64,000 nucleotides of DNA, taken from NCBI RefSeq assembly GCF_036507355.1, contig NZ_AP027877.1; one strand, given 5' to 3'. This stretch comes from Escherichia coli. GTDB lineage: Bacteria > Pseudomonadota > Gammaproteobacteria > Enterobacterales > Enterobacteriaceae. Each line of letters begins with the position of its first letter. The first letter of the stretch is position 1. The translations under genes and the position numbers were made by a program. The notes under the pieces were generated by a model. That model saw only the letters and a list, made by a program, of their open reading frames with translations, was not told the origin of the DNA and did no database searches. Positions 1-36,994 of this stretch are shown piece by piece.

Positions 1-2
1 TG

Positions 3-797
3 CGCGGGCAGTCTTCCATTACCGCGACTTTATATGCCGGTTTGCAACTGATCATGCCGGGCGAAGTGGCACCGAGTCATCGTCATAATCAGTCGGCGCT
101 GCGTTTTATTGTTGAAGGCAAAGGGGCATTTACCGCCGTTGATGGCGAACGCACGCCAATGAATGAAGGCGATTTTATCCTGACCCCGCAGTGGCGCTGG
201 CACGATCACGGTAACCCTGGCGACGAACCGGTTATCTGGCTCGATGGGCTGGATCTGCCATTAGTGAATATTCTGGGCTGCGGTTTTGCCGAAGATTATC
301 CGGAAGAGCAACAACCGGTAACGCGTAAAGAGGGAGATTATCTGCCGCGTTACGCTGCCAATATGTTGCCGCTGCGGCATCAGACGGGGAACTCCTCGCC
401 GATCTTTAACTATCGTTATGACCGCAGCCGCGAAGTGCTGCACGATTTAACCCGACTGGGCGATGCCGACGAGTGGGATGGCTACAAAATGCGCTACGTC
501 AACCCGGTCACCGGCGGCTATCCGATGCCGTCGATGGGCGCTTTCCTGCAACTGCTGCCGAAAGGGTTTGCCTCACGCGTTGCGCGTACCACTGACAGCA
601 CCATCTACCATGTGGTGGAAGGTAGCGGGCAGGTCATCATCGGCAATGAAACCTTCAGCTTTAGTGCAAAAGATATCTTCGTGGTGCCGACCTGGCATGG
701 CGTGTCGTTCCAGACCACGCAAGATTCCGTTTTATTTAGTTTTTCGGACAGACCGGTACAAGAAGCCCTGGGGCTGTTCCGCGAAGCGCGTTATTAA
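3..797 (+). CDS. gentisate 1,2-dioxygenase, C-terminal part (5' end lies before the window; mhbD-like)
   Basis: Open frame from position 3 with no stop; cupin-type motifs ([19 protein letters not shown], second cupin module); first gene of a D-H-I-M order matching known 3-hydroxybenzoate clusters. Confidence 0.7.
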
Positions 798-811
798 TTT
801 AGGAGAGAAAA

Positions 812-1513
812 ATGACTCAATACGTATTCGAACCGCAAGCGCCCGTTACCGTACCGGTTGTTGGCAGTGATGAACAATTCCCCGTGCGCCGCGTTTACTG
901 CGTCGGACGTAACTATGCCGCTCACGCCCGCGAAATGGGCTTTGATCCGGATCGTGAACCGCCATTCTTCTTCTGCAAACCGGCGGATGCCGTTGTTCCG
1001 GTTGCCGCTGGTGAAACGCTGGCGCTGCCGTATCCGGCACAGACCGATAACTACCATTACGAAATTGAACTGGTGGTGGCGATTGGTAAAAAAGGCAGCG
1101 ATATCCCGCTGGAACACGCCCATGAATATGTCTGGGGTTATGCCACGGGTCTTGATATGACTCGGCGTGACCGTCAAATGGAAATGCGCCAGATGGGCCG
1201 CCCGTGGGAAATCGGTAAAGCGTTTGATCTCTCAGCGCCCATCGCGCCGCTGCACAAAGCCCGCGATATCGGCGGTATTGATAATGCGCCAATCTGGTTA
1301 CAGGTTAACGGCGAAGATCATCAGCGCAGCGATATTCGCCATCTCATCTGGTCGGTGAATGAAACCATCAGCTATCTGTCAGGCTTCTTTGAGCTGCAAC
1401 CGGGCGATCTGATCTTCACCGGTACGCCGGAAGGGGTTGGCCCGGTAGTGAAAGGTGATGTGATCACAGGCAACGTCGAGGGCTTAACGCCTATCGCGGT
1501 GAAGATTGTCTGA
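812..1513 (+). CDS. fumarylpyruvate hydrolase (fumarylacetoacetate hydrolase family; mhbH-like)
   Basis: 233-aa ORF with FAH-fold sequence; RBS-like aggagag 8 nt upstream; 14 nt after preceding gene. Confidence 0.7.
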
Positions 1514-1518
1514 GGTGC

Positions 1519-2166
1519 ATGATGAAGCTGTACAGTTTTTTTAATAGTTCAGCGTCGTACCGGGTACGCATTGCGCTGGCGCTGAAAGGCATTAATTACC
1601 AGACCGAAGGGGTGAATATCCGTATTGGTCAGCAAAATGAACTGGCCTATCGGCGGATGAATCCGGTCGGGCTGGTGCCGACGCTGCTGACTGACGAGGG
1701 CGAATCACTCGGACAATCGCTGGCGATTATTGACTGGCTGGAGAGGCACTACCCGCAAGTTCCGCTGGTGCCGCAGGAAGAGCCGGCCCGCAACAAGGTG
1801 CTGGAAATTGTCTATGCCATCGCTTGTGATATTCATCCATTGAATAACTTGCGCGTGCTGCGCTACCTGACCGAAGAACTGAACGTCAGTGAAGAAGAAA
1901 AAAAACGTTGGTATGCGCACTGGATCCAGCAAGGGTTAAGCGCGGTGGAACAACTGTTGCGCCAGAACCAGTCGGGGCAATTTTGTGTGGGCGAGACGCC
2001 GACGCTGGCAGATTGCTGCCTTGTCCCGCAGTGGGCGAACGCGCTACGCATGAACTGCGATTTGAGCGGGTATCCACGCTGCAAAGCGGTGTACGACGCC
2101 TGCACACAGCTGCCAGCGTTCATTGCCGCAGCGCCAGAAAATCAACAAGATAAAATTTCAGCCTGA
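1519..2166 (+). CDS. maleylpyruvate isomerase (zeta-class glutathione S-transferase; mhbI-like)
   Basis: 215-aa ORF with GST N-terminal thioredoxin-like region (SSASYRVRIALALKGINY); 5 nt after upstream gene. Confidence 0.7.
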   Translation: MMKLYSFFNSSASYRVRIALALKGINYQTEGVNIRIGQQNELAYRRMNPVGLVPTLLTDEGESLGQSLAIIDWLERHYPQVPLVPQEEPARNKVLEIVYAIACDIHPLNNLRVLRYLTEELNVSEEEKKRWYAHWIQQGLSAVEQLLRQNQSGQFCVGETPTLADCCLVPQWANALRMNCDLSGYPRCKAVYDACTQLPAFIAAAPENQQDKISA

Positions 2167-2180
2167 CCAGGAGAACTATA

Positions 2181-3374
2181 ATGACGAAAGTGACACGCGC
2201 AGTAATTGTGGGAGGCGGGATCGGCGGTGCGGCAACTGCGCTGTCACTGGCCCGCCTGGGGATCAAAGTGGTGCTGCTGGAAAAGGCGCATGAGATCGGT
2301 GAGATTGGCGCGGGCATCCAGTTGGGGCCAAATGCGTTTTCGGCGCTGGACAGCCTCGGCGTCGGCGAAGTTGCCCGCCAGCGCGCGGTGTTTACCGATC
2401 ACATTACCATGATGGATGCGGTGAACGCCGAAGAAGTGGTGTGCATTGAAACCGGGCAGGCTTTTCGTGACCATTTCGGCGGCCCTTACGCGGTGATCCA
2501 CCGGGTTGATATTCACGCCTCGGTGTGGGAAGCGGTACTGACGCATCCGGACGTGGAATATCACACCTCCACCAACGTCGTGGATATTCGCGAGACGGAA
2601 GACGATGTCACCGTGTTTGACGATCGCGGCAATAGCTGGACCGGCGATATTCTGATTGGCTGTGACGGCGTGAAGTCAGTGGTGCGCCAGAGCTTATTGG
2701 GCGATGCGCCGCGTGTCACCGGACATGTTGTCTACCGTGCGGTTATCGATCGTGCCGATATGCCGGAAGATTTGCGCATTAACGCACCGGTACTGTGGGC
2801 GGGGCCGCATTGTCACTTGGTGCATTACCCTTTGCGCGGCGGCAAGCAGTATAACCTGGTGGTAACATTCCACAGCCGCCAGCAGGAAGAGTGGGGCGTG
2901 AAGGATGGTAGTAAAGAGGAAGTGCTCTCTTACTTTGAAGGGATTCACCCCCGTCCGCGCCAGATGTTGGATAAACCGACTTCATGGCGACGCTGGTCAA
3001 CCGCTGACCGTGAACCGGTGGCGAAGTGGGGAACGAAGCGCATAACGCTTGTGGGCGATTCGGCCCATCCGGTGGCGCAATATATGGCGCAGGGAGCCTG
3101 TATGGCGCTGGAAGATGCAGTAACGCTGGGTAAGGCGCTGGCGCAGTGTGAGGGTGATGCGGCGCAAGCCTTTGCGCTGTATGAGTCGGTACGAATTCCG
3201 CGCACCGCGCGCATCGTCTGGTCGACCCGTGAAATGGGGCGGGTTTACCACGCCGCAGGGGTAGAACGCCAGGTACGTAATCTGCTGTGGAAAGGGAAAT
3301 CGCAGGCAGAATTTTATCGCGGCATGGAGTGGTTGTACGGCTGGAAAGAAGATAACTGTTTGCAACCACGCTAA
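2181..3374 (+). CDS. 3-hydroxybenzoate 6-hydroxylase (FAD-dependent aromatic monooxygenase; mhbM-like)
   Basis: 397-aa ORF; N-terminal FAD dinucleotide-binding motif VIVGGGIGGAATALSLARLGIKVVLLEK; RBS aggaga upstream. Confidence 0.7.
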   Translation: MTKVTRAVIVGGGIGGAATALSLARLGIKVVLLEKAHEIGEIGAGIQLGPNAFSALDSLGVGEVARQRAVFTDHITMMDAVNAEEVVCIETGQAFRDHFGGPYAVIHRVDIHASVWEAVLTHPDVEYHTSTNVVDIRETEDDVTVFDDRGNSWTGDILIGCDGVKSVVRQSLLGDAPRVTGHVVYRAVIDRADMPEDLRINAPVLWAGPHCHLVHYPLRGGKQYNLVVTFHSRQQEEWGVKDGSKEEVLSYFEGIHPRPRQMLDKPTSWRRWSTADREPVAKWGTKRITLVGDSAHPVAQYMAQGACMALEDAVTLGKALAQCEGDAAQAFALYESVRIPRTARIVWSTREMGRVYHAAGVERQVRNLLWKGKSQAEFYRGMEWLYGWKEDNCLQPR

Positions 3375-3533
3375 GCACTTCTTCACCCAATCAGGCGCAC
3401 GGGCGGTCCCCTCGCCCCTTCGGGAGAGGGTTAGGGTGAGGGTAAAAATCTTGCCCGAATTAATCAGTAAGTCAGTTTGTCTGCAAACACAGGAGGCGCT
3501 AACATAGCGCCTCATTTTTTTGCGGGTGATGAT

Positions 3534-4484
3534 ATGCGTGTGTTACTGGCTCCGATGGAGGGAGTGCTTGACTCTCTGGTGCGTGAATTGCTGACCGAAG
3601 TTAACGACTACGATCTGTGCATCACCGAGTTCGTCCGCGTGGTGGATCAACTGCTGCCGGTGAAAGTCTTTCATCGCATTTGCCCTGAGCTACAAAACGC
3701 CAGCCGGACACCATCCGGTACGCTGGTGCGCGTGCAGTTGTTGGGTCAGTTCCCACAATGGCTGGCAGAGAACGCCGCCCGTGCGGTGGAATTAGGTTCC
3801 TGGGGCGTGGATCTCAATTGCGGCTGCCCGTCGAAAACGGTTAACGGTAGCGGTGGTGGGGCGACGTTACTCAAAGATCCTGAACTCATCTACCAGGGTG
3901 CAAAAGCGATGCGTGAAGCTGTACCGGCGCATTTGCCCGTCAGCGTGAAAGTGCGTCTGGGCTGGGACAGCGGTGAGAAGAAATTTGAAATCGCCGATGC
4001 GGTTCAACAGGCTGGTGCTACGGAGCTGGTGGTGCATGGACGGACAAAAGAGCAGGGTTACCGCGCGGAGCATATTGACTGGCAGGCGATTGGCGAGATT
4101 CGCCAGCGGCTGAATATTCCGGTGATTGCCAACGGCGAAATCTGGGACTGGCAGAGCGCGCAACAATGCATGGCGATCAGCGGCTGCGACTCAGTGATGA
4201 TTGGTCGCGGGGCGCTCAATATTCCCAACCTGAGCCGGGTAGTAAAATATAACGAACCGCGAATGCCGTGGCCGGAGGTGGTTGCTTTGCTGCAAAAATA
4301 TACCCGTCTGGAAAAGCAGGGCGATACCGGGTTATATCACGTAGCGCGGATTAAACAGTGGTTGAGTTATTTGCGTAAAGAATACGATGAAGCAACAGAA
4401 TTATTTCAGCATGTTCGTGTGTTGAATAATTCCCCTGATATTGCAAGGGCTATTCAGGCAATTGATATCGGTAAGCTGCGATAA
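3534..4484 (+). CDS. dusC: tRNA-dihydrouridine synthase C
   Basis: N-terminus [13 protein letters not shown] and length (about 316 aa) match E. coli DusC; ORF-track start at 3477 is an upstream in-frame extension. Confidence 0.9.
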
Positions 4485-4871
4485 TAGTGGAATCGCAGTT
4501 TATCAGAGACAATGAATCGCTTATTCAGCTTCATCATCTTGTTGCGCTCCTTTCATGAGCTAAGCCACATATTGCCACTGGCGCAAGGAGCGCGCAGGGG
4601 GAGGACAATCGCCTCCTCCCCCTGCACCCCCGGGCTCTGGCGAACAAAATCGCCGCTGCGCGGTACCTTCAGCTTATCCCCTTCGGCTACCGGGTCGGGC
4701 GCGAGGAAACGTCCTTGTAAGACGCGCCCTCAGCCCACATCCATGTGGGCTGCCCCGGCCTTCGGGGAACGCTTCAGCGATTTTGACGCCACCAACACCG
4801 GAGCTGTTTGCAAATCAAGTACACAAAATATCTAGTTCCTGACCTGACAACTTATATGTCATATCTGATTT

Positions 4872-4955
4872 TTAAAATATCATCTTAAATACGCCAGTCA
4901 CCACCAGTAGCCCAATCAGGAAAATAATCAATACAGCCCAGAGTATAATTTTCAT
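4872..4955 (-). CDS. yohP: 27-aa small inner-membrane protein YohP
   Basis: Hand translation of minus strand gives MKIILWAVLIIFLIGLLVVTGVFKMIF; single transmembrane helix; too short for the ORF track. Confidence 0.7.
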   Translation of the reverse strand: MKIILWAVLIIFLIGLLVVTGVFKMIF

Positions 4956-5178
4956 TGGCGTTCCTTTATTTGTGAGTGCTGAATAAGTATAGGAAAAAAC
5001 GAAGCCCTTTGCCGTTATCCATAAACGATTAAGATAAATCGGAAGATATCATTCACTTAGTGTATATTTTTCTGGATATGTCGTTTTATTGCTACTGATG
5101 TATTGCCACGCGAAACTAAAAAATATATCGCAACACACGGTAATCTCCGCGCACCTTTTCTTACCTGATTATTCCCCC

Positions 5179-6615
5179 ATGAATCGTGATTCCTTTTATC
5201 CAGCCATCGCCTGTTTTCCGCTGTTACTGATGCTGGCCGGGTGTGCGCCTATGCATGAAACCCGCCAGGCGTTAAGCCAGCAAACGCCCGCTGCACAAGT
5301 TGACACCGCATTACCCACGGCGCTGAAAAATGGTTGGCCAGACAGCCAATGGTGGCTGGAGTATCACGATAATCAACTCACTTCCTTAATTAACAATGCA
5401 CTACAGAACGCACCGGATATGCAGGTGGCTGAACAGCGCATTCAGTTAGCTGAAGCCCAGGCGAAGGCAGTTGCTACTCAGGATGGTCCGCAGATCGACT
5501 TTTCTGCGGATATGGAGCGGCAAAAAATGTCGGCAGAAGGGCTAATGGGGCCGTTTGCTCTGAACGATCCGGCCGCAGGTACGACCGGTCCGTGGTACAC
5601 CAACGGAACTTTTGGCTTAACGGCGGGCTGGCATCTCGATATCTGGGGAAAGAATCGGGCGGAGGTTACTGCCCGCCTGGGTACGGTTAAAGCACGGGCG
5701 GCGGAACGCGAGCAAACCCGCCAATTGCTGGCTGGCAGCGTAGCCCGCCTGTACTGGGAGTGGCAAACCCAGGCGGCGTTAAACACGGTCTTGCAGCAAA
5801 TCGAAAAAGAGCAGAACACCATTATCGCGACCGATCGCCAGCTATATCAGAACGGGATTACTTCTTCAGTTGAAGGTGTGGAAACCGATATTAATGCCAG
5901 CAAAACCCGGCAGCAGCTCAACGATGTCGCGGGGAAAATGAAAATTATTGAGGCACGGTTAAGCGCACTTACAAATCACCAGACAAAGTCATTGAAGCTT
6001 AAACCGGTCGCGTTGCCGAAAGTGGCAAGCCAGCTTCCTGATGAACTGGGGTACTCCTTACTGGCCCGGCGGGCAGATTTGCAGGCGGCGCACTGGTACG
6101 TTGAGTCATCGCTAAGCACCATTGATGCGGCAAAAGCGGCATTTTATCCTGACATCAACCTGATGGCCTTCCTGCAACAGGATGCGTTGCACTTAAGCGA
6201 TCTGTTCCGTCATTCCGCGCAGCAAATGGGCGTTACGGCAGGCCTGACGCTACCCATTTTCGATAGTGGTCGTCTTAACGCCAATCTCGATATCGCAAAA
6301 GCTGAAAGCAACTTGTCTATCGCCAGCTACAACAAAGCGGTGGTTGAAGCGGTGAATGACGTGGCGCGGACAGCCAGTCAGGTTCAGACACTTGCGGAGA
6401 AAAACCAGCATCAGGCGCAAATTGAGCGCGATGCCTTGCGTGTGGTAGGTCTTGCGCAGGCGCGCTTTAACGCGGGCATCATTGCTGGTTCCCGCGTCAG
6501 CGAAGCCAGAATCCCCGCGTTGCGTGAGCGGGCCAATGGCCTGTTATTGCAAGGGCAGTGGCTGGATGCCTCCATTCAACTCACTGGTGCGTTGGGCGGG
6601 GGTTACAAACGCTGA
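5179..6615 (+). CDS. mdtQ: outer-membrane efflux lipoprotein (OMF family), apparently intact
   Basis: Lipobox LLLMLAGC after start MNRDSF; 478-aa OMF/TolC-like sequence with no internal stop. Confidence 0.8.
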   Translation: MNRDSFYPAIACFPLLLMLAGCAPMHETRQALSQQTPAAQVDTALPTALKNGWPDSQWWLEYHDNQLTSLINNALQNAPDMQVAEQRIQLAEAQAKAVATQDGPQIDFSADMERQKMSAEGLMGPFALNDPAAGTTGPWYTNGTFGLTAGWHLDIWGKNRAEVTARLGTVKARAAEREQTRQLLAGSVARLYWEWQTQAALNTVLQQIEKEQNTIIATDRQLYQNGITSSVEGVETDINASKTRQQLNDVAGKMKIIEARLSALTNHQTKSLKLKPVALPKVASQLPDELGYSLLARRADLQAAHWYVESSLSTIDAAKAAFYPDINLMAFLQQDALHLSDLFRHSAQQMGVTAGLTLPIFDSGRLNANLDIAKAESNLSIASYNKAVVEAVNDVARTASQVQTLAEKNQHQAQIERDALRVVGLAQARFNAGIIAGSRVSEARIPALRERANGLLLQGQWLDASIQLTGALGGGYKR

Positions 6616-6667
6616 TGATATGCGCCTTCTATACTTAACGTTTATTCAGCGTTAAGTGGAGAACTCG

Positions 6668-7429
6668 ATGGCACAGGTTGCGATAATTACCGCCTCCGAT
6701 TCGGGGATCGGCAAAGAGTGCGCATTATTACTGGCGCAGCAGGGGTTTGATATTGGCATTACCTGGCACTCTGATGAAGAAGGGGCAAAAGACACCGCGC
6801 GTGAGGTGGTTAGCCACGGCGTACGTGCGGAGATCGTGCAACTGGATCTCGGCAATCTGCCAGAAGGTGCGCAGGCGCTGGAGAAACTCATTCAACGGCT
6901 GGGGCGTATTGATGTGCTGGTGAATAATGCGGGCGCAATGACCAAAGCGCCGTTTCTTGATATGGCTTTCGATGAGTGGCGCAAGATTTTTACCGTTGAT
7001 GTCGATGGTGCATTTTTATGTTCGCAAATTGCTGCCCGCCAGATGGTGAAACAAGGGCAGGGTGGTCGCATCATCAACATTACGTCGGTACATGAACATA
7101 CGCCGCTGCCGGATGCCAGCGCCTACACAGCCGCTAAACATGCGCTCGGCGGGTTAACCAAAGCAATGGCGCTGGAGTTGGTCAGGCATAAGATTTTGGT
7201 GAACGCAGTCGCACCTGGGGCGATCGCTACGCCAATGAACGGCATGGATGATAGCGACGTGAAGCCCGACGCGGAGCCTTCGATTCCTCTGCGGCGTTTT
7301 GGCGCAACGCATGAGATTGCCAGCCTGGTGGCGTGGCTTTGTTCGGAGGGTGCAAATTACACCACCGGGCAGTCGTTGATAGTGGATGGCGGCTTTATGT
7401 TGGCGAATCCGCAGTTCAACCCAGAATAG
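6668..7429 (+). CDS. yohF: short-chain dehydrogenase/reductase
   Basis: N-terminus MAQVAIITASDSGIGKE (Rossmann TGxxxGIG) and 253-aa length. Confidence 0.85.
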   Translation: MAQVAIITASDSGIGKECALLLAQQGFDIGITWHSDEEGAKDTAREVVSHGVRAEIVQLDLGNLPEGAQALEKLIQRLGRIDVLVNNAGAMTKAPFLDMAFDEWRKIFTVDVDGAFLCSQIAARQMVKQGQGGRIINITSVHEHTPLPDASAYTAAKHALGGLTKAMALELVRHKILVNAVAPGAIATPMNGMDDSDVKPDAEPSIPLRRFGATHEIASLVAWLCSEGANYTTGQSLIVDGGFMLANPQFNPE

Positions 7430-7461
7430 CGCAGTGAGGTGCGTAGTTATTTCAATGGGTT

Positions 7462-7536
7462 AGGCCAGATAAGACACGCCAGCGTCGCATCAGGCATGGA
7501 ACACCCGGCGCCGGATGTGGCGTGAATGCTTATCTG
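7462..7536. repeat. REP/BIME palindromic elements (two copies)
   Basis: GCCAGATAAGACACGCCAGCGTCGCATCAGGC and GCCGGATGTGGCGTGAATGCTTATCTG match the REP consensus style, sitting between convergent yohF and yohD. Confidence 0.55.
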
Positions 7537-7547
7537 TGGCAACTGCT

Positions 7548-8126
7548 TTACGCCTGATTATCCGGCTTTTTCTTCCCGCGTCGTTTCAGCCACCAGCGCA
7601 CGCCTACCACCAGAACCACGACCAGAATCAACCAGACCCAGTGCTTCAAATGCTGGTCGAGATTGTGCAACCACGGCGCAATCACCTGACCACCAGCGTA
7701 ACCGATAGTGGTAAAAATCAACGCCCAGGCAAATGCGCCGAGAATATTCAGCGGCAGAAAGATTTTCGGCGGCAGCTGGCTGGCACCAATCAGCGTCGGG
7801 CCAATCACCCGAAAGCCATACATAAAACGCGTACCAATGACAAACAGATACGGATGGCGTTGGATCAGTTTCTGCGCCCGCTCAATTTTATCCTGATGTT
7901 TCGAGAAACGGCGTAACAGCTTGCCGCCAAACCGCCGCCCGCACAGATAAAGCACCTGGTCGCCAATCATGCCGCCAAGCGCTACAGAAAGTACCACCAG
8001 CGGGAACTTTAATAGCCCCTGATGTGCCGCAACGCCTCCCAGCAAAGTCACGGTTTCACCTTCCGCCAGGCTACCGATCACCAGCGCGGCATAACCATAT
8101 TGTGAGATGAGTGTATTGAGATCCAT
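7548..8126 (-). CDS. yohD: DedA-family inner-membrane protein
   Basis: N-terminus MDLNTLISQYGYAALVIGSLAEGE, 192 aa. Confidence 0.85.
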   Translation of the reverse strand: MDLNTLISQYGYAALVIGSLAEGETVTLLGGVAAHQGLLKFPLVVLSVALGGMIGDQVLYLCGRRFGGKLLRRFSKHQDKIERAQKLIQRHPYLFVIGTRFMYGFRVIGPTLIGASQLPPKIFLPLNILGAFAWALIFTTIGYAGGQVIAPWLHNLDQHLKHWVWLILVVVLVVGVRWWLKRRGKKKPDNQA

Positions 8127-8295
8127 AGGCCAGTCTGTCTCCCTTTGGTTGCCTGTAAGCATACACCCTGTAAATCATTCACGCTGAAAAAGGACATACA
8201 TAAGACGGTGCAAATCACATGAGCGAACAAAAAATAATCACAAGCTGACTTATACTTGAACTGTCAGGTTCATGAACTCACAACAAGGGGGCGGT

Positions 8296-8883
8296 ATGAG
8301 CCATGTCTGGGGACTGTTTTCCCATCCCGATCGTGAAATGCAGGTGATTAATCGCGAAAACGAAACGATTTCTCACCATTACACCCACCACGTTTTGCTG
8401 ATGGCGGCGATTCCGGTGATTTGCGCCTTCATTGGCACTACACAGATTGGCTGGAATTTTGGCGATGGCACTATCCTGAAGTTATCCTGGTTTACCGGAC
8501 TGGCGCTGGCTGTCCTGTTTTATGGCGTTATGCTCGCTGGGGTCGCGGTGATGGGGCGGGTCATCTGGTGGATGGCGCGTAATTATCCGCAGCGTCCGTC
8601 ACTTGCGCACTGCATGGTCTTCGCGGGCTACGTTGCAACTCCGCTGTTTTTAAGCGGTCTGGTGGCGCTTTATCCGCTGGTCTGGTTGTGTGCGCTGGTC
8701 GGCACGGTGGCGCTGTTTTACACCGGCTACCTGCTTTATCTCGGTATTCCGAGCTTCCTGAATATCAACAAAGAGGAAGGCCTTAGCTTCTCCAGTTCGA
8801 CGCTGGCGATTGGCGTGCTGGTACTGGAAGTGCTGCTCGCCCTAACCGTTATACTATGGGGCTACGGTTATCGTTTGTTCTAG
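8296..8883 (+). CDS. yohC: Yip1-family inner-membrane protein
   Basis: N-terminus MSHVWGLFSHP, 195 aa, multiple hydrophobic segments. Confidence 0.8.
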   Translation: MSHVWGLFSHPDREMQVINRENETISHHYTHHVLLMAAIPVICAFIGTTQIGWNFGDGTILKLSWFTGLALAVLFYGVMLAGVAVMGRVIWWMARNYPQRPSLAHCMVFAGYVATPLFLSGLVALYPLVWLCALVGTVALFYTGYLLYLGIPSFLNINKEEGLSFSSSTLAIGVLVLEVLLALTVILWGYGYRLF

Positions 8884-9056
8884 AAAGTTCTTTGACGTTG
8901 CATTGCTGGCGTAAATGTCAGCAATGCAGCATTTCCTCACGATTCTCCTTTGACGATCGCACTTTTTGCTCGTTATGATGGCGTCGCTAGCCTCAGTAAA
9001 TCCTTACTCCGGCGGTGCGCAACCCGTGCGCGTGAACCACTATCTGAATGCTCATC

Positions 9057-9989
9057 ATGCCGAAATTTCGAGTTTCTTTATTTAGCCTGGCCCTGATGCT
9101 GGCTGTGCCTTTGGCACCGCAGGCCGTTGCGAAAACGGCAGCCGCTACCACCGCTTCACAACCGGAAATTGCCTCCGGTAGCGCGATGATTGTTGATCTG
9201 AATACCAACAAAGTGATCTATTCGAACCACCCGGATCTGGTGCGTCCGATTGCGTCTATCAGCAAATTAATGACCGCGATGGTTGTGCTGGATGCACGAC
9301 TGCCGCTGGATGAAAAACTAAAAGTGGATATCAGCCAGACGCCGGAGATGAAAGGGGTCTATTCGCGCGTACGACTGAACAGCGAAATCAGCCGTAAAGA
9401 TATGCTGTTGCTGGCGTTGATGTCTTCAGAAAACCGCGCGGCGGCAAGCCTTGCGCACCATTATCCCGGTGGTTACAAAGCCTTTATTAAGGCGATGAAT
9501 GCGAAAGCGAAATCGCTCGGAATGAACAACACGCGCTTTGTTGAACCGACCGGATTGTCGGTGCATAACGTTTCAACCGCCCGTGACTTAACCAAACTGC
9601 TCATTGCCAGCAAACAATATCCGTTGATCGGGCAGTTAAGTACTACCCGGGAAGATATGGCAACCTTCTCTAACCCGACGTATACGCTGCCGTTCCGCAA
9701 TACTAATCATCTGGTGTATCGCGATAACTGGAATATTCAGTTAACCAAAACCGGCTTTACCAATGCGGCGGGCCATTGTCTGGTGATGCGTACGGTTATC
9801 AATAATAAACCGGTGGCGCTGGTAGTGATGGATGCGTTTGGCAAATATACCCATTTTGCCGATGCCAGCCGCCTGCGTACCTGGATTGAAACCGGTAAAG
9901 TGATGCCTGTTCCGGCAGCAGCGTTGAGCTATAAAAAACAAAAAGCCGCCCAAATGGCGGCGGCGGGGCAGACGGCACAGAACGATTAA
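9057..9989 (+). CDS. pbpG: D-alanyl-D-alanine endopeptidase (PBP7)
   Basis: N-terminus [25 protein letters not shown] (signal peptide); SxxK active-site motif SISKLMT; 310 aa. Confidence 0.9.
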
Positions 9990-9996
9990 GTGAATT

Positions 9997-10029
9997 ACGG
10001 ATGGCGATACTCTGCCATCCGTCATTTTT
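9997..10029. terminator. bidirectional intrinsic terminator between convergent pbpG and dld
   Basis: Perfect hairpin ACGGATGGC-GATACTC-TGCCATCCGT followed by TTTTT. Confidence 0.6.
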
Positions 10030-11743
10030 ACTCCACTTCCTGCCAGTTTTTCCGCTTACTGGTTTTACCGATCCCCGGATTCATACTGTTGGTCGGATCG
10101 TTCTCGCGATAAAACTTCTGCAACGTCTCCGGTGCTTTATACAAATGACCGACGTTATGTTCGGCAGGATATTGCGCGCCACGCTGCTGCAGCAGTTCCA
10201 GCATCTGTTCTTTCAACGCATGCACATCCACGCCTTTTTTAACGATGTAATCCTGATGGAAGACATAGCACATAAAATGGCCGTAATAGAGCTTGTGCAC
10301 CAGCTGGCTGTCGATCTCCGGCGGTAAATGCTCATACCACTCGGTGTCGTTACGCCGCAGAGCGATATCCAGCGCCAGAATGTCTTCGACTTCATCGGAA
10401 TGCACCGCCTGATAACGAATTGCTGCGCCCGCAGCGGCGAAACGGTGTAAAAACGCTTTGCTGCCTTCCTCCGGCGTACAGACAAAGAAATCGCCTTCGG
10501 CCTGTTTGAAATAATCCACCAGCCACGATTTGGCTTCGCCCACGCCATCGCCCGCCATTTTTAACAGCAGATGATGCTCGTATTTATCGCGCCAGTTTTT
10601 CATGCGCGGCGGTAAATGGCTGGGGAACAGGTGACCGAATTTTTGCATCGCACGGTCAGTAAAATGCGGACGGAAGAATTTCACTTTCTCCAGCATCGCA
10701 TCGGTGCGTCCCTTGAGATTAAAGAAGAACGGCATCTTGTCGGTGCCTAACTTATCAATCATCAGGAAGGTGTCTTTGCCGTATTTTTCCGCAATATCGT
10801 AGATATCCCGGTGCATATATTCCCCGGCAACCGGCAGATTTTCGAAGTTAGCCAGAATATGACGGCGGATTTCGGTCAGCACTTCCGGCTGGTTGGTGCC
10901 GATATAAAACACCTGCTGATTTTTTTCCGCTTCGAAGGTATCAAGACGTACTGCAAAGACGGCCAGCTTCCCGGCGCAACCAGAAGATTCAAATAACCGA
11001 TCCGGATCGGCGTTATAACGTGCGGGCGTGTCGGCTTCAATATCACGAACGCGGTGGACATAGTCATAATCGTGGGCGTGACGACCATCGTGACGCACAT
11101 CGTCATCTTTGATGCGATCGTCATCCAGCTTGCTAAGGATCTGCTCCGGCGTTTCGCCCAGATCAATCCCGAGATGGTTCACCAGCGTCAGCTTGCCATC
11201 TTCATTTATACGCGCGAATAACGACATTTCGGTATACGCCGGGCCACGTTGCACCAGCGAGCCGCCGGAGTTGTTACAAATACCGCCGATGACCGATGCG
11301 CCAATGCACGATGAACCAATCACCGAGTGCGGTTCGCGTCCCAGCGGTTTGAGGGCTTTTTCCAGCGAATAAAGCGTGGTGCCCGGATAGGCCAGCACCT
11401 GTTCGCCCTTGCCGAGAACGTGCAGCTTGTCGAGACGCAGGGTGCTGATGATCACGATATCGCGATCATAGTCGTTACCGTTTGGCGTCGATCCTTCGGT
11501 CAGGCCTGTATTGGCAGCCTGCATCAGAATAATTTTGTCGGCGGTGACGCAGGCTTTCAGCACCCGCCACAATTCCAGTAGTGAGCCAGGGAAAACGACA
11601 GCCAGCGCGTCGCCCTGACCAGAACGGAAGCCCTTGCGATAGCGGGCCGTTTTTGCGGGATCGGTGAGCAGGTGTGAATGACCGACCAGACGGGCAAGTT
11701 CATTCAAAAAGGCTTTATTATCAGTTGTTGTCATGGAAGACAT
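10028..11743 (-). CDS. dld: FAD-dependent D-lactate dehydrogenase
   Basis: N-terminus MSSMTTTDNKAFLNEL, 571 aa. Confidence 0.9.
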   Translation of the reverse strand: MSSMTTTDNKAFLNELARLVGHSHLLTDPAKTARYRKGFRSGQGDALAVVFPGSLLELWRVLKACVTADKIILMQAANTGLTEGSTPNGNDYDRDIVIISTLRLDKLHVLGKGEQVLAYPGTTLYSLEKALKPLGREPHSVIGSSCIGASVIGGICNNSGGSLVQRGPAYTEMSLFARINEDGKLTLVNHLGIDLGETPEQILSKLDDDRIKDDDVRHDGRHAHDYDYVHRVRDIEADTPARYNADPDRLFESSGCAGKLAVFAVRLDTFEAEKNQQVFYIGTNQPEVLTEIRRHILANFENLPVAGEYMHRDIYDIAEKYGKDTFLMIDKLGTDKMPFFFNLKGRTDAMLEKVKFFRPHFTDRAMQKFGHLFPSHLPPRMKNWRDKYEHHLLLKMAGDGVGEAKSWLVDYFKQAEGDFFVCTPEEGSKAFLHRFAAAGAAIRYQAVHSDEVEDILALDIALRRNDTEWYEHLPPEIDSQLVHKLYYGHFMCYVFHQDYIVKKGVDVHALKEQMLELLQQRGAQYPAEHNVGHLYKAPETLQKFYRENDPTNSMNPGIGKTSKRKNWQEVE

Positions 11744-11938
11744 TTTCCACTCCTTGTGGTGGCGAAAAAATATCACAAACTAGAATAGCGCCTTGTATGA
11801 CAATTCAGCGAGTGAATATTTTGAAAATTCAGACAATAAACTGAGCATTCTTTTTCTCTCTCCATCATGCTTATGGCAAACTACGGTTTTTGCACCATTT
11901 TCGCTGCCACGTCGGGCAACAAAGGAAGAAAAATCCAT

Positions 11939-14236
11939 ATGAAATGGCTATGTTCAGTAGGAATCGCGGTGAGTCTGGCCCTGCAGCCAGCACTGGCGGA
12001 TGATTTATTCGGTAACCATCCATTAACGCCTGAAGCGCGGGATGCGTTCGTCACCGAACTGCTTAAGAAAATGACAGTTGATGAGAAAATTGGTCAGCTG
12101 CGCTTAATCAGCGTCGGCCCGGATAACCCGAAAGAGGCGATCCGCGAGATGATCAAAGACGGTCAGGTTGGGGCGATTTTCAACACCGTAACCCGTCAGG
12201 ATATCCGCGCCATGCAAGATCAGGTGATGGAATTAAGCCGCCTGAAAATTCCTCTTTTCTTTGCTTACGACGTGCTGCACGGTCAGCGCACGGTGTTCCC
12301 GATTAGCCTCGGTCTGGCCTCGTCTTTTAACCTCGATGCAGTGAAAACGGTCGGACGTGTCTCTGCTTATGAAGCGGCAGATGATGGCCTGAATATGACC
12401 TGGGCACCGATGGTCGATGTCTCGCGCGATCCGCGCTGGGGACGTGCTTCCGAAGGTTTTGGCGAAGATACGTATCTCACCTCAATAATGGGTAAAACCA
12501 TGGTGGAAGCGATGCAGGGAAAAAGCCCGGCAGATCGCTACTCGGTGATGACCAGCGTCAAACACTTTGCCGCATACGGTGCGGTAGAAGGCGGTAAAGA
12601 GTACAACACCGTCGATATGAGTCCGCAGCGCCTGTTTAATGATTATATGCCGCCGTACAAAGCGGGGCTGGACGCAGGCAGCGGCGCGGTGATGGTGGCG
12701 CTGAACTCGCTGAACGGCACGCCAGCCACCTCCGATTCCTGGCTGCTGAAAGATGTTCTGCGCGATCAGTGGGGTTTTAAAGGCATCACCGTTTCCGATC
12801 ACGGTGCAATCAAAGAACTGATTAAACATGGCACGGCGGCAGACCCGGAAGATGCGGTGCGCGTGGCGCTGAAATCCGGAATCAACATGAGCATGAGCGA
12901 CGAGTACTACTCGAAGTATCTGCCTGGGTTGATCAAATCCGGCAAAGTGACGATGGCAGAGCTGGACGATGCTGCCCGCCATGTACTGAACGTTAAATAT
13001 GATATGGGGTTGTTTAACGACCCATACAGCCATTTGGGGCCGAAAGAGTCTGACCCGGTGGATACCAATGCCGAAAGCCGCCTGCACCGTAAAGAAGCGC
13101 GTGAAGTGGCGCGCGAAAGCCTGGTGTTGCTGAAAAACCGTCTCGAAACGTTACCGCTGAAAAAATCCGCAACCATTGCGGTGGTTGGCCCGCTGGCAGA
13201 CAGCAAGCGTGACGTGATGGGAAGCTGGTCGGCGGCAGGTGTTGCCGATCAATCCGTGACCGTGCTGACCGGGATTAAAAATGCCGTCGGTGAAAACGGT
13301 AAAGTGCTGTATGCCAAAGGGGCGAACGTTACCAGTGACAAAGGCATTATCGATTTCCTGAATCAGTATGAAGAAGCGGTCAAAGTCGATCCGCGTTCGC
13401 CGCAAGAGATGATTGATGAAGCGGTGCAGACGGCGAAACAATCTGATGTGGTGGTGGCTGTAGTCGGTGAAGCACAGGGGATGGCGCACGAGGCCTCCAG
13501 CCGTACCGATATTACTATTCCGCAAAGTCAACGTGACTTGATTGCGGCGCTGAAAGCCACCGGTAAACCGCTGGTGCTGGTGCTGATGAACGGGCGTCCG
13601 CTGGCGCTGGTGAAAGAAGATCAGCAGGCTGATGCGATTCTGGAAACCTGGTTTGCGGGGACTGAAGGCGGTAATGCAATTGCCGATGTATTGTTTGGCG
13701 ATTACAACCCGTCCGGCAAGCTGCCGATGTCCTTCCCGCGTTCTGTCGGGCAGATCCCGGTGTACTACAGCCATCTGAACACCGGTCGTCCGTATAATGC
13801 CGACAAGCCGAACAAATACACTTCGCGTTATTTTGATGAAGCTAACGGGGCGCTTTATCCGTTCGGCTATGGTCTGAGCTATACCACTTTCACCGTCTCT
13901 GATGTGAAACTTTCTGCGCCGACCATGAAGCGTGACGGCAAAGTGACGGCCAGCGTGCAGGTGACGAACACCGGTAAACGCGAAGGGGCCACGGTAGTGC
14001 AGATGTACTTGCAGGATGTGACGGCTTCCATGAGCCGTCCAGTGAAGCAGCTGAAAGGCTTTGAGAAAATCACCCTGAAGCCGGGCGAAACTCAGACCGT
14101 CAGCTTCCCGATTGATATCGAGGCGCTGAAGTTCTGGAATCAACAGATGAAATATGACGCCGAGCCTGGCAAGTTCAATGTCTTTATCGGCACTGATTCC
14201 GCACGCGTTAAGAAAGGCGAGTTTGAGTTGCTGTAA
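11939..14236 (+). CDS. bglX: periplasmic beta-glucosidase (GH3)
   Basis: N-terminus MKWLCSVGIAVSLALQPALA (signal peptide), 765 aa. Confidence 0.9.
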   Translation: MKWLCSVGIAVSLALQPALADDLFGNHPLTPEARDAFVTELLKKMTVDEKIGQLRLISVGPDNPKEAIREMIKDGQVGAIFNTVTRQDIRAMQDQVMELSRLKIPLFFAYDVLHGQRTVFPISLGLASSFNLDAVKTVGRVSAYEAADDGLNMTWAPMVDVSRDPRWGRASEGFGEDTYLTSIMGKTMVEAMQGKSPADRYSVMTSVKHFAAYGAVEGGKEYNTVDMSPQRLFNDYMPPYKAGLDAGSGAVMVALNSLNGTPATSDSWLLKDVLRDQWGFKGITVSDHGAIKELIKHGTAADPEDAVRVALKSGINMSMSDEYYSKYLPGLIKSGKVTMAELDDAARHVLNVKYDMGLFNDPYSHLGPKESDPVDTNAESRLHRKEAREVARESLVLLKNRLETLPLKKSATIAVVGPLADSKRDVMGSWSAAGVADQSVTVLTGIKNAVGENGKVLYAKGANVTSDKGIIDFLNQYEEAVKVDPRSPQEMIDEAVQTAKQSDVVVAVVGEAQGMAHEASSRTDITIPQSQRDLIAALKATGKPLVLVLMNGRPLALVKEDQQADAILETWFAGTEGGNAIADVLFGDYNPSGKLPMSFPRSVGQIPVYYSHLNTGRPYNADKPNKYTSRYFDEANGALYPFGYGLSYTTFTVSDVKLSAPTMKRDGKVTASVQVTNTGKREGATVVQMYLQDVTASMSRPVKQLKGFEKITLKPGETQTVSFPIDIEALKFWNQQMKYDAEPGKFNVFIGTDSARVKKGEFELL

Positions 14237-24870: not shown

Positions 24871-26003
24871 GACTGAAGATTCTCCGCAAGCCATGATGCC
24901 AGCTCGCCCGGTGTCATGGCGGCTATTTGTGCGCCGACATTTACCAGCGCCTGGGCCGTATCGTGGTCATAGCAAGGTGTTGCGGTGCTATCGAGCGCCG
25001 CCAGTCCCAGCACTTTGATGCCGCTCTGGACACACTTTTTCACCTGATGCGTCAGTAATGATGATGAACCCCCTTCGTAAAAATCGCTCACGAGGATAAT
25101 GACGCTTTTCGCTGGTTGTTCAATAAGTTGCCGACCATACTCCACGGCACTGGCGATATTGGTTCCGCCGCCTAATTGCACTTTCATTAATAACTCTACC
25201 GAATCGGCAACGTCTGCCGTGAGATCAACCACACTGGTGTCAAAAGCGACCAGATGGGTACGAATGCCGGGTAACTGCCATAAACAGGCCGCCATCACCG
25301 CAGAGTGGATCACCGAATCGACCATCGAGCCGCTTTGATCAACCAGTAAGACCAGTTGCCATTGTTCGCTTTGGCGTTTAATGCGGCTGTTAAAGCGGGG
25401 GGATTCGATATACAACTTGCCGTGTTGTGGGTGCCAGTGTTGCAGGTTGGCGCGCAGAGTACTTTTGAAATCAAAGTTTCGCGCCAGTGGAATAAATGAG
25501 CGGCGACGGCGATCGCGGACACCAGAAAAAGCCTGACGAACTTCCTTTGCCAGTCGAGCCATAATTTCTTCAACAACCTGGCGCACTATCCGGCGGGCGG
25601 CAGCCAGTACTTCGGGATTCATCAGATGTTTGGTGTGCAAAACGGCGCGTAGCAGGCTTTCAGACGGTTGCATACGTTCCAGCACGTCGAGATTCGTCAC
25701 CACATCTTCAATGCCATAGCGCAGTACGGCATCGCTTTCCAGCCGCTCAATCACCTGTTGCGGAAACAGCGTGTGAATACTGTTGATCCACTCAGGGGTG
25801 GTGAGATTTGAGCCACCTAATCCACCAGAGCGTTCACCACGCTGGAGCCGTTCAGGATCGCGCCCATACAGCCACTCCAGCGCGTGGTCTATCTGCCGGG
25901 CGTTGTCATCCAGCCCACAAAGCGTCGTTTCTGCCGCTTCGCCAAGAATTAATCGCCAGCGTTGTAGCTCACGGGTGGTCAGAAGATCGTTCAGTTCAGA
26001 CAT
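24867..26003 (-). CDS. yehP: von Willebrand factor A (VWA) domain protein
   Basis: N-terminus MSELNDLLTTRELQRWRLILG; MIDAS motif DQSGSM within a VWA fold; 378 aa; start overlaps the yehM stop. Confidence 0.8.
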   Translation of the reverse strand: MSELNDLLTTRELQRWRLILGEAAETTLCGLDDNARQIDHALEWLYGRDPERLQRGERSGGLGGSNLTTPEWINSIHTLFPQQVIERLESDAVLRYGIEDVVTNLDVLERMQPSESLLRAVLHTKHLMNPEVLAAARRIVRQVVEEIMARLAKEVRQAFSGVRDRRRRSFIPLARNFDFKSTLRANLQHWHPQHGKLYIESPRFNSRIKRQSEQWQLVLLVDQSGSMVDSVIHSAVMAACLWQLPGIRTHLVAFDTSVVDLTADVADSVELLMKVQLGGGTNIASAVEYGRQLIEQPAKSVIILVSDFYEGGSSSLLTHQVKKCVQSGIKVLGLAALDSTATPCYDHDTAQALVNVGAQIAAMTPGELASWLAENLQS

Positions 26004-28275: not shown

Positions 28276-28285
28276 GCATCTTTCC

Positions 28286-29374
28286 TCACGGCAGGCGGTG
28301 ACGGGCTTGATAATAAGCCTGCCAGTGAGCTTCTTTATGTGTGGCGACACGCTGTTCGAAGTAACGGCGCAGACGAGCGCGATCTTCTTCGTTATCTTTG
28401 ACGATGGTTCCGGCAATACAGTCCACCAGGTCGGCAGGCTCCCCCGCACGATTCGCTAAAAACCAGGCGCGGACGCCCACAGCGTGAGCCACATTCACGG
28501 CTTCAGCGGTGGACATAATTGCCGTCAGTGTATCCATTGACGTTTTCTTTTCGCCGTTGGCACGCAGATCGCGGAAGGTGCGGACCAGTAACTCCAGTAC
28601 CGCGTCAGGCACTTTATGCGGAATACCGCTATGGGCCAGCAAACGCGCCGAAGCACTGGCGACAAGCTCCAGCTCCTGGGCGAAATCCATAATCGGAAAG
28701 ACAGTTTCAAAATCGAAGCGACGCTTTAGCGCAGCACTCATTTCATTGACGCCGCGATCGCGGGTATTGTCAGTGGCAATAATATTAAAGCCTTCTCGCG
28801 CATAGAGCTGACTGGCTTCACCAGTGAGTTCCGGCACCGTCATCACCCTGTCAGAAAGCATACCTAACAGACAGTCTTGCACTTCCAGCGGTGTACGCGT
28901 TATCTCTTCAAAACGGACGATTTTGCCGTCGCGCATTCCCTGGTAAAGCGGGGCTGGGACCAGCGCTTCCGTTGATGGACCATGATTGATAAGCAGGGCG
29001 TAGTTCCAGCCGTACTTGATTTGATCTTCGGTAGTAGATGCGCCGTCCTGGATGGTTAACCCGGCATCGCCGCTAATAGCGGTTGCCAGTAATTCAGACA
29101 GGAGAGATTTTGCGGTGCCAGATTCCCCCACCAACATCAAACCGCGTCCGGTGGCAAGAGTGACTAACATACGTTCGACAGCGGAGGGACTAATCACCAC
29201 TTTACGGCTAATATTTTGCGCGCTATCGCCAAGGATAAAAGCACGGGCCGCAGGCAAACTTAACTGCCAACCGGGCGGGCAAGGTGCGTTATCATTTTGT
29301 TTTAATTTTGCCAGTTCATCGGCGTATAACACAGCAGCAGGCGGACGCTGCAGATGATTATTCTGCGGTGACAT
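28286..29374 (-). CDS. yehL: MoxR-type AAA+ ATPase
   Basis: N-terminus MSPQNNHLQRPPAAVLY; Walker A LVGESGTAKS; Walker B-like acidic motif; 362 aa. Confidence 0.8.
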   Translation of the reverse strand: MSPQNNHLQRPPAAVLYADELAKLKQNDNAPCPPGWQLSLPAARAFILGDSAQNISRKVVISPSAVERMLVTLATGRGLMLVGESGTAKSLLSELLATAISGDAGLTIQDGASTTEDQIKYGWNYALLINHGPSTEALVPAPLYQGMRDGKIVRFEEITRTPLEVQDCLLGMLSDRVMTVPELTGEASQLYAREGFNIIATDNTRDRGVNEMSAALKRRFDFETVFPIMDFAQELELVASASARLLAHSGIPHKVPDAVLELLVRTFRDLRANGEKKTSMDTLTAIMSTAEAVNVAHAVGVRAWFLANRAGEPADLVDCIAGTIVKDNEEDRARLRRYFEQRVATHKEAHWQAYYQARHRLP

Positions 29375-29482: not shown

Positions 29483-29568
29483 AATAAAAAAACCTGCTGG
29501 TGAGGCAGGTTCTTTTATTTACTATTTTCAGGCCTAACACCACAGCCTGTGCAACATCGTGTTCCAAC
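29483..29568 (-). ncRNA. predicted antisense sRNA antitoxin (OrzO-like), roughly 85 nt
   Basis: Minus-strand -10 TATAAT (plus 29575-29580) placing the start near 29568; minus-strand intrinsic terminator (hairpin 29491-29511 plus U-run 29481-29490); its 5' end is complementary to the toxin leader at 29716-29734 (19 nt, 1 mismatch). Confidence 0.5.
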
Positions 29569-36226: not shown

Positions 36227-36241
36227 GGTAATGACTCCAAC

Positions 36242-36745: not shown

Positions 36746-36939
36746 CCAACGCCATTCATGGCCATATCAATGATTTTCTGGTGCGTACCGGGTTGAGAAG
36801 CGGTGTAAGTGAACTGCAGTTGCCATGTTTTACGGCAGTGAGAGCAGAGATAGCGCTGATGTCCGGCGGTGCTTTTGCCGTTACGCACCACCCCGTCAGT
36901 AGCTGAACAGGAGGGACAGCTGATAGAAACAGAAGCCAC
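36664..36939 (-). CDS. insA: IS1 InsA
   Basis: 91-aa [30 protein letters not shown]..., zinc-finger/HTH protein of IS1. Confidence 0.9.
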
Positions 36940-36994
36940 TGGAGCACCTCAAAAACACCATCATACACTAAATCAGTAAGTTGGCAGCATCACC

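Follow-up and report, generated by a model that had tools for sequence, protein, structure and literature searches.

A 3-hydroxybenzoate/gentisate (mhb) operon next to dusC in Escherichia coli, probably an ancestral enterobacterial locus deleted in most strains

What lies between yohJ and dusC differs among strains of Escherichia coli, and the difference raises two questions: which pathway is encoded by the genes found there, and whether these genes were gained by the strains that have them or lost by those that do not. We addressed both in a stretch of 64,000 nucleotides of E. coli DNA (the window), which opens inside a cluster of catabolic genes that runs up to dusC. With a probability of about 0.88, we conclude that the window opens within the enterobacterial mhb operon (mhbR | mhbT-D-H-I-M) and covers its distal two-thirds, and that this operon is an ancestral locus deleted in most E. 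coli.

Gene content of the cluster and the pathway it would encode

Four genes on the plus strand, each with a Shine-Dalgarno-like motif, were found where the earlier note had placed them, and their spacing is minimal as claimed, with gaps of 14, 8 and 14 nt between mhbD, mhbH, mhbI and mhbM. The cluster does leave the window at its start, since the first open reading frame is partial (bases 3-797): the 3′ part of mhbD (gtdA), encoding gentisate 1,2-dioxygenase, occupies 1..797 with 795 nt in frame from base 3, or 264 of 342 codons. It is followed by mhbH (812..1513), mhbI/maiA (1522..2166 from the RefSeq start, with an alternative ATG at 1519) and mhbM (2181..3374), and the right flank of the locus is formed by the core gene dusC (3534..4484, plus strand; NF007838, 695 bits). 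The interval 1-3476 previously assigned to the cluster contains genes through 3374, while its last bases (3375-3476) are spacer without a gene. Gene families were assigned with NCBIfam equivalog models at their curated cut-offs and domains with Pfam, and equivalogs above cut-off were obtained for three of the four genes (mhbD, mhbI and mhbM). The proposed gene identities agree with these family models, and the D-H-I-M order is that published for mhb clusters (PMC3572157).

MhbD scored 471 bits against TIGR02272 (cut-off 442) despite the N-terminal part missing in the window. Pfam finds two Cupin_2 domains in it, making it a bicupin protein; gentisate 1,2-dioxygenase is an Fe2+ bicupin enzyme. 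The visible 264 residues match PDB 2D40 with zero differences (615 bits), and the full-length dioxygenase of the O157 mhb locus is 100% identical to 2D40. PMC4585797, referring to Adams 2006, describes the E. coli O157:H7 gentisate dioxygenase as active on gentisate, and GtdA protein has been detected in rumen-grown O157.

MhbM scored 756 bits against NF006021, the 3-hydroxybenzoate 6-monooxygenase model (cut-off 459) in an alignment that covers nearly the whole profile (residues 2-396 on positions 3-397 of 398); among solved structures, 4BJY/4BJZ comes nearest (264 bits). Enzymes of this type are FAD-dependent and convert 3-hydroxybenzoate to gentisate. The protein is identical to the O157:H7 copy, from which the gene differs by one synonymous nucleotide at position 2462. 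MhbI, a zeta-class GST, scored 309 bits against TIGR01262, a model for maiA-type zeta-GST isomerases (cut-off 171), and matches the solved structures 6jwk (232 bits) and the maleylpyruvate isomerase 2JL4/2V6K (166 bits). It is presumably a glutathione-dependent maleylpyruvate isomerase, though sequence alone does not distinguish a specificity for maleylpyruvate from one for maleylacetoacetate. MhbH is a FAH-superfamily hydrolase (PF01557 FAA_hydrolase, E = 1.3e-54) for which no NCBIfam equivalog model passes its cut-off; the solved structure it matches best is 6j5y (379 bits), followed by 4maq, a 'putative fumarylpyruvate hydrolase' (246 bits). From its operon context, we assign it as a putative fumarylpyruvate hydrolase, releasing fumarate and pyruvate from fumarylpyruvate.

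Because neither MhbH nor the upstream transporter MhbT has a family model above the curated cut-off, the substrates of both are deduced from context. In the working scheme, 3-hydroxybenzoate would be brought in by MhbT, an aromatic-acid:H+ symporter-type MFS protein, and hydroxylated at C6 by MhbM to gentisate, the ring of which MhbD would open to maleylpyruvate; MhbI, with glutathione, would then convert maleylpyruvate to fumarylpyruvate, the presumed substrate of MhbH. MhbR, a divergent LysR protein, probably binds a dyad in the mhbR-mhbT spacer and would thereby switch the operon on. Carrier strains of E. coli would accordingly be expected to grow on 3-hydroxybenzoate via mhb; in the literature searched, we found nothing on growth, uptake or induction in such strains. 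The mhbRTDHIM-type operon is the well-known 3-hydroxybenzoate/gentisate route of enteric bacteria, here in intact form.

Flanks of the cluster and lineage of the window

The part of the operon upstream of the window was read from a contig that belongs to the same lineage as the window and shows 1 difference in 14,484 nt. The earlier note had proposed searching there for an mhbR/mhbT-like regulator and transporter, and had named lesions in this part of the cluster as a refutation. Both genes are present and intact in this contig and in O157, and no lesion was found in mhbD, mhbT or mhbR: the contig carries an intact mhbD, the MFS transporter gene mhbT, a divergent LysR-type mhbR and then yohJ, so that all six mhb open reading frames are intact in the window lineage as they are in O157. 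The mhbR and mhbD proteins are those of O157, and MhbT differs by one substitution. MhbR has HTH_1 and LysR_substrate domains, and MhbT matched no family model above its curated cut-off. In the 126-nt spacer between mhbR and mhbT, beside the mhbR start, lies a candidate regulatory dyad, ATAACC-N4-GGTTAT (ATAACCTCCAGGTTAT), which is conserved in 19 Enterobacterales species.

Downstream, mhbM adjoins dusC in all Enterobacteriaceae loci with sequence extending to this point. The spacer between them is of the O157 type (3377..3492), about 100 nt in place of a short ancestral spacer, and its extra segment holds a dispersed GC-rich repeat of ~55 nt (about 3393-3447), the core of which is present once in the window and, as a median across E. 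coli genomes, at 16 sites. The terminator scan identified a terminator-like hairpin, GAGGCGCTAACATAGCGCCTC, with a T-run at 3493..3520 on the plus strand, 14 nt upstream of the dusC ATG. When seven sequences of this spacer were aligned, including APEC O2-211, E69, E. albertii, Citrobacter and K-12, the hairpin was conserved in 7/7, at occupied and empty sites alike. This predicted terminator is likely the end of the mhb transcript, which would stop right before dusC. The promoter scan returned no sigma-70-like promoter for dusC between mhbM and dusC.

Comparison with O157:H7 revealed 1 difference in 1-3476 (strain 493/89) and 4 differences in 1-5600, followed by a divergence of ~1.5% beyond. 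SNP profiles place the change-point inside mdtQ, at 5534..6033. Over 5600-13000 of the window, the identity to complete E. coli genomes stays at or below 99.0%.

Distribution of the cluster and origin of the empty site

The mhb cluster is present in 613 of 5,426 complete E. coli genomes and absent from K-12 MG1655, where dusC adjoins yohJ-yohK-cdd as the earlier note had stated; its view of the cluster as strain-variable content therefore holds. 'Accessory' should not be taken as 'acquired', however, since the variability comes mainly from loss in most strains. In the same genome set, the yohJ-dusC site is occupied in 504 and of the empty K-12 type in 4,914, and the latter share one allele, carried by ~90% of E. 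coli, in which ~6.1 kb is replaced by ~108 nt. The whole yohJ-dusC spacer of K-12 measures only 238 nt; it keeps 17-18 nt that are found after the mhbM stop in APEC O2-211, together with the hairpin. As to the source of the ~108-nt filler, blastn-short matched only this 17-18-nt spacer, local alignments with four versions of the island did not outscore shuffled sequences, and the filler is not itself a dispersed repeat.

Two diverged occupied haplotypes, an O157 type and an APEC O2-211 type, make up the remaining carriers. Their clusters share 95.0-96.5% nucleotide identity and 97-99% protein identity, and because the latter exceeds the former, the change between them is mostly silent. Between the haplotypes the cluster diverges by 3.5-5.0%, most flanking genes by 1.6-3.3% and yohF by 5.4%; since the cluster diverges more than most of its flanking genes, some introgression beside vertical descent is possible. 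IS-flanked copies are also found off-site, on an O145:H28 island and on plasmids of ETEC; these off-site copies, unlike the native locus, class as horizontally acquired, and they appear to have moved to genomic islands and to the plasmids. Strain NCTC9100 retains a truncated mhbM remnant.

Outside E. coli, mhb synteny at yohJ-dusC extends to about 25 Enterobacteriaceae species, including Raoultella and the divergent Escherichia E69, and the order yohK-yohJ-mhbR|mhbTDHIM-dusC is kept in E. albertii, Citrobacter, Klebsiella, Salmonella diarizonae, Kluyvera, Enterobacter and others. Per-gene identities of the cluster are close to those of its flanks in E. albertii (88-92% vs 86-92%), C. werkmanii (80-86% vs 74-84%) and K. 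michiganensis (74-83% vs 68-80%). The GC content of the cluster (50-58%) and of the flanks (49-55%) is uninformative for foreign origin, and no integrase, tRNA, direct repeats or IS elements were found at the native-site junctions. With clean junctions, flank-like GC and a site that is occupied in related species, the native locus does not class as a genomic island. Such sequence comparison marks yohJ-mhb-dusC as an ancestral locus of Enterobacteriaceae that most E. coli have lost by deletion: its order is conserved, its divergence is flank-like and K-12 keeps 17 nt from after the mhbM stop; the K-12 state is read as a deletion because the cluster occupies exactly the same position across the family.

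A horizontally acquired island, put between yohJ and dusC in an O157:H7-like lineage with K-12 as the original empty site, would fit the absence of the cluster from ~90% of complete E. coli genomes, its designation as EHEC-specific in metabolic models, the mobile IS-flanked copies on the O145:H28 island and ETEC plasmids, and the sharp divergence change-point at ~5.6 kb of the window. We nevertheless consider such an insertion improbable, given that the cluster stands in the same position and orientation, with flank-like divergence, in E. albertii, E69, Citrobacter, Klebsiella and others, that its native junctions bear none of the marks of integration, that mhbM-proximal spacer nucleotides survive in K-12 and that its base composition is not atypical. 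The further proposal that the genes are a cryptic remnant on the way to loss, intact in E. coli but unexpressed or useless, draws on the single widespread deletion that removed the cluster from most strains, on the truncated mhbM of NCTC9100 and on the lack of E. coli growth data in the literature searched; it is opposed by six intact open reading frames in the window lineage and O157, mostly silent differences between haplotypes, a conserved regulatory dyad and the GtdA protein seen in rumen-grown O157. Plasmids and islands have also picked up the cluster more than once, and it is therefore argued to be useful, so that decay too is an unlikely account of the locus.

Least probable of all, to the point that we would be surprised by it, is that the genes serve another pathway, either the homogentisate branch of tyrosine degradation or salicylate hydroxylation. 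The names point that way: RefSeq calls two of the products maiA and a FAH-family protein, TIGR01262 is titled maleylacetoacetate isomerase, and a 'salicylate hydroxylase' is listed for EHEC (Baumler 2011). The proteins do not, as the ring-cleavage enzyme is a gentisate and not a homogentisate dioxygenase (by TIGR02272, by identity to 2D40 and by the gentisate activity reported in PMC4585797), and MhbM reaches only 138 bits on the salicylate 1-monooxygenase model (cut-off 446). The isomerase is close to a solved maleylpyruvate isomerase, and the gene order is that of the characterised Klebsiella mhb operon.

An ancestral mhb operon lost from most E. coli thus stands as the preferred reading, and the direction of the polymorphism, namely loss, is the main refinement it brings; the operon as such is a textbook case of aromatic catabolism, its O157:H7 dioxygenase has already been crystallised, and no new biology is involved. 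The 'EHEC-specific' label is misleading for a locus that is ancestral in the family and of which K-12 has the derived, deleted state, and the RefSeq names (maleylacetoacetate isomerase, FAH family protein), like the 'salicylate hydroxylase' of the EHEC model, undersell the identity of the cluster. Copies on ETEC plasmids and islands hint that the cluster may confer an advantage in the gut of herbivores. More tentatively, and at clearly less than even odds, the locus may represent an old presence/absence polymorphism, composed of one ancient deletion allele (~90%) and two haplotypes and spread anew by homologous recombination and by IS-mediated capture, the latter onto islands and onto enterotoxin plasmids of ETEC, which would imply recurrent selection. 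Were this so, lineages associated with livestock (O157:H7, O145:H28 and porcine/bovine ETEC) would have been selected for the ability to degrade hydroxybenzoates from plants.

Comparison with known systems

The nagIKL genes of Ralstonia sp. U2 encode what we take to be a comparable set, a zeta-GST glutathione-dependent maleylpyruvate isomerase (2JL4/2V6K) together with a dioxygenase for gentisate and a hydrolase for fumarylpyruvate. They belong to a naphthalene/salicylate route, fed by salicylate 5-hydroxylase and not by a 3-hydroxybenzoate 6-monooxygenase, and their gene context differs. The solved gentisate 1,2-dioxygenase of E. coli O157:H7 (PDB 2D40) shows no protein-level difference from the part visible in the window, but the host of the window differs from O157:H7, the source of that structure, with flanks ~1.5% diverged.

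A characterised counterpart is the mhbRTDHIM organisation with a LysR activator described in Klebsiella pneumoniae (oxytoca) M5a1 (PMC3572157), with which the locus shares gene set, gene order and a divergent LysR-type mhbR. Representatives of Klebsiella species likewise have the cluster between yohJ and dusC, and their proteins are 84-92% identical to those of E. coli, a range from which the identity to the M5a1 proteins is estimated; unlike the Klebsiella mhb locus, the window has an extra repeat-containing segment in its spacer to dusC. For Salmonella typhimurium, PMC3572157 cites Goetz & Harmuth 1992 for a gentisate pathway and for growth on m-hydroxybenzoate and on gentisate. In S. enterica subsp. 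diarizonae the genes mhbH-I-M-dusC-mdtQ-yohF are arranged as in the window, but the nucleotide identity of this subspecies to E. coli is about 79-83%.

Gene content of the cluster and lineage of the window

Four open reading frames on one strand lie in window 1-3476, separated by gaps of 14, 8 and 14 nt and each preceded by a Shine-Dalgarno-like motif. The first (3-797, + strand) is the 3' end, 264 codons, of a gene for gentisate 1,2-dioxygenase (mhbD/gtdA) with two cupin domains, and it scores 471 bits with TIGR02272 (cut-off 442) though truncated. Over its full length the dioxygenase of the locus shows 100% identity to the solved enzyme of E. coli O157:H7 (PDB 2D40), whose activity is summarised in a passage of PMC4585797 that cites Adams et al. 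2006. It is followed by mhbH (812-1513, +), which matches the FAA_hydrolase domain and, among solved structures, lies closest to 6j5y (379 bits) and to the 'putative fumarylpyruvate hydrolase' 4maq (246 bits), and by mhbI (1522-2166, +), encoding a zeta-class GST (TIGR01262, 309 bits against a cut-off of 171) related to 2JL4/2V6K, a maleylpyruvate isomerase of known structure. The last, mhbM (2181-3374, +), aligns end to end with the 3-hydroxybenzoate 6-monooxygenase model NF006021 (756 bits, cut-off 459), and dusC (3534-4484, +) lies downstream of it. These frames, gaps and family scores confirm the four-gene gentisate cluster before dusC that had been read from the sequence; the interval assigned to it, 1-3476, holds the four genes, and only 3375-3476 is non-coding.

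Over its first 3.5 kb the window matches genomes of E. coli O157:H7 and O55:H7 almost exactly; in them the locus reads yohJ(-), LysR regulator(-), mhbT, gtdA, FAH, maiA, 3HB6H and dusC; the sole difference from O157 within the four mhb genes, at position 2462, is synonymous. An exact-protein match to the window's DusC led to contig DADCDS010000006.1 (GCA_016660925.1), with a single difference from the window in 14,484 positions. On this contig of the window's lineage the mhbD and mhbR proteins are those of O157, mhbT carries one substitution (A323T), and all are intact. The regulator and transporter that the earlier note had placed out of sight beyond the window start are thus both present, and no loss-of-function lesion was found in the upstream part of the cluster on this contig, so that the cluster reading stands.

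The window itself is not O157:H7, which was ruled out by 4 differences over 1-5600 followed by about 1.5% divergence. The change-point (about 5534-6033, near 5.6 kb) falls inside mdtQ and marks a recombination breakpoint in the window lineage, with the mhb cluster on its O157-like side. None of 5,426 complete E. coli genomes exceeds 99.0% identity over 5600-13000; the draft assembly GCA_016660925.1 is the closest record, and the host lineage is thinly represented. K-12 MG1655 has a pseudogene in place of mdtQ (5179-6615, 478 codons), which is intact here and in O157. Identity to O157 is only about 91% in the yeh fimbrial operon, and the annotation of O157 strain 493/89 treats as pseudogenes both yehM (ORF 25996-28449) and yehI (30384-34016, 1210 aa), which are open here. 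Compared with O157:H7, the yehI-paralog (DUF4132) region (36000-49600) is rearranged and shorter. The OrzO-P antitoxin sRNA (29486-29561, -, Rfam RF02083, 99.9 bits) marks a zor-orz type I toxin-antitoxin locus; it has one copy in the window, and the same ~500 nt match two tandem places in O157:H7. A Peptidase-S11 RNA motif upstream of pbpG (8972-9052, +) and a TPP riboswitch upstream of thiM (53857-53953, +) are expected features.

Variation at the yohJ-dusC interval

As the earlier note had stated, K-12 lacks the cluster at the dusC flank: dusC and yohJ are 238 nt apart in MG1655. The cluster was found in 613 of 5,426 complete E. coli genomes and the occupied yohJ-mhbR junction in 504, while the K-12-type empty site with its specific filler occurs in 4,914 at 97-100% identity. 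We surveyed synteny by an MhbM scan of one genome per species followed by tblastn of flanking proteins. The order yohK-yohJ-mhbR, mhbT-D-H-I-M, dusC, with mhbR divergent, recurs in E. albertii and the divergent Escherichia E69, in several Citrobacter and Klebsiella species, and in Raoultella, Kluyvera, Enterobacter, Pseudocitrobacter, Pluralibacter and Shimwellia; Salmonella diarizonae has the same order on contigs covering the locus only in part. Gene by gene, nucleotide identity in the cluster follows that in flanking core genes (88-92% and 86-92% in E. albertii, 80-86% and 74-84% in C. werkmanii, 74-83% and 68-80% in K. michiganensis, for cluster and flanking genes respectively), and its GC content is not atypical.

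The K-12 empty site retains TTTAATCCGCTGACCAT, the nucleotides directly 3' of the mhbM stop in APEC O2-211, E69 and E. albertii, together with the hairpin before dusC. At the left junction K-12 equals APEC O2-211 up to GAAATC, after which the two diverge. A recently inserted island at yohJ-dusC is contradicted by the synteny across taxa and by this scar. On the simplest reading, the family inherited the locus from its ancestor, and one deletion, with about 108 nt in place of about 6.1 kb, now dominates E. coli; therefore the strain-variable accessory content first proposed does vary among strains, with loss as the event that the synteny and the retained TTTAATCCGCTGACCAT suggest.

Where the native site is occupied in E. 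coli, it holds one of two haplotypes, an APEC O2-211 type, which retains the short ancestral spacer to dusC, and an O157 type. Between them DNA divergence is 3.5-5.0% and protein divergence only 1-3%, which indicates purifying selection on the mhb genes. Their divergence is somewhat deeper than in most flanking genes. We entertain, tentatively, a long-lived presence/absence polymorphism in which recombination and plasmids spread the cluster anew among livestock-associated lineages.

Displaced copies and the mhbM-dusC spacer

At least 109 E. coli genomes (613 minus 504) carry the cluster only away from its native site. O145:H28 RM13516, for example, has it on an IS3-bordered genomic island, and strain NCTC9100 has a truncated mhbM remnant in an island. 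Large plasmids carry it as well, among them pCFSAN004179G, where it lies (5350-11375) between IS91/IS3 fragments and an IS256 element, with a copy of the heat-stable enterotoxin gene sta1 close by on either side. In PLSDB 18 records match, most rated conjugative; 12 are genuine E. coli/Escherichia plasmids, and one further Escherichia record, of 4.9 Mb, looks like a chromosome. The first ~55 nt of the O157-type spacer, among them the first part of its GC-rich repeat, recur in the mobile copies, which were therefore probably captured from an O157-type locus. Outside Escherichia, Serratia marcescens carries mhbR and mhbTDHIM (5167-11191 on two contigs) at 87-92% protein identity to E. coli and without yohJ/dusC flanks, which looks like transfer from Enterobacteriaceae; the proteins of Serratia sp. 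H1w reach only 67-83%. A contig labelled MAG: Collinsella sp. (1015-5626) has E. coli-type mhbR and mhbT (100%) and mhbM (98%) and lacks mhbH and mhbI; an E. coli contig with an internal deletion, placed in the wrong bin, is the most likely explanation.

The O157-type spacer, which the window has, is about 100 nt longer than the short ancestral one and contains a ~55-nt GC-rich repeat (…CCCCTCGCCCCTTCGGGAGAGGGTTAGGGTGAGGG…, about 3393-3447) that is dispersed in E. coli (median 16 places per genome), is unannotated in RefSeq, and probably belongs to the boxC family. A terminator scan found a single terminator-like site between mhbM and dusC, a hairpin with T-run at 3493-3520 that stops 14 nt short of the dusC start codon and is kept in all seven aligned sequences, at occupied and empty sites alike. 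A promoter scan of the same spacer found no sigma-70-like promoter, so that dusC, with the hairpin before it, may need transcripts that read through from upstream; in K-12 the ~108-nt filler may supply a dusC promoter.

Proposed pathway and relation to known systems

MhbT would import 3-hydroxybenzoate, MhbM would hydroxylate it to gentisate, and MhbD would cleave the gentisate ring to maleylpyruvate, which MhbI would isomerise to fumarylpyruvate using glutathione and MhbH would hydrolyse to fumarate and pyruvate; the substrates of MhbT, MhbI and MhbH are predicted. In the profile search MhbH and MhbT reached the curated cut-off of no family model, and MhbI exceeds that of the maleylacetoacetate isomerase equivalog, a score equally compatible with maleylpyruvate and maleylacetoacetate specificity. 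The family scores contradict a role of the genes in homogentisate or salicylate routes; with the salicylate hydroxylase model the mhbM product gets only 138 bits against a cut-off of 446. In genome-scale models, gentisate 1,2-dioxygenase and a 'salicylate hydroxylase' are entered as reactions specific to EHEC. We found no report of E. coli growth on 3-hydroxybenzoate or gentisate in the literature searched. A cryptic cluster is nevertheless disfavoured by the intact frames, the mostly silent divergence, the repeated capture by mobile elements, the detection of GtdA protein in O157 grown in bovine rumen, and the conservation of an operator-like dyad. This perfect dyad, ATAACC-N4-GGTTAT, adjoins the mhbR start in the 126-nt mhbR-mhbT spacer, is kept in 19 Enterobacterales species, and is a good candidate for an MhbR site.

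The cluster had been noticed before in EHEC, and the structure of its dioxygenase is solved. In Klebsiella M5a1 the LysR-type MhbR activates the mhbRTDHIM operon (PMC3572157). Regulation of the E. coli operon, like growth on its substrates, is a prediction. The gene set and order of the Klebsiella cluster equal those of the E. coli locus, whose gene content, gene order and type of regulator place it in the enterobacterial mhb operon family.
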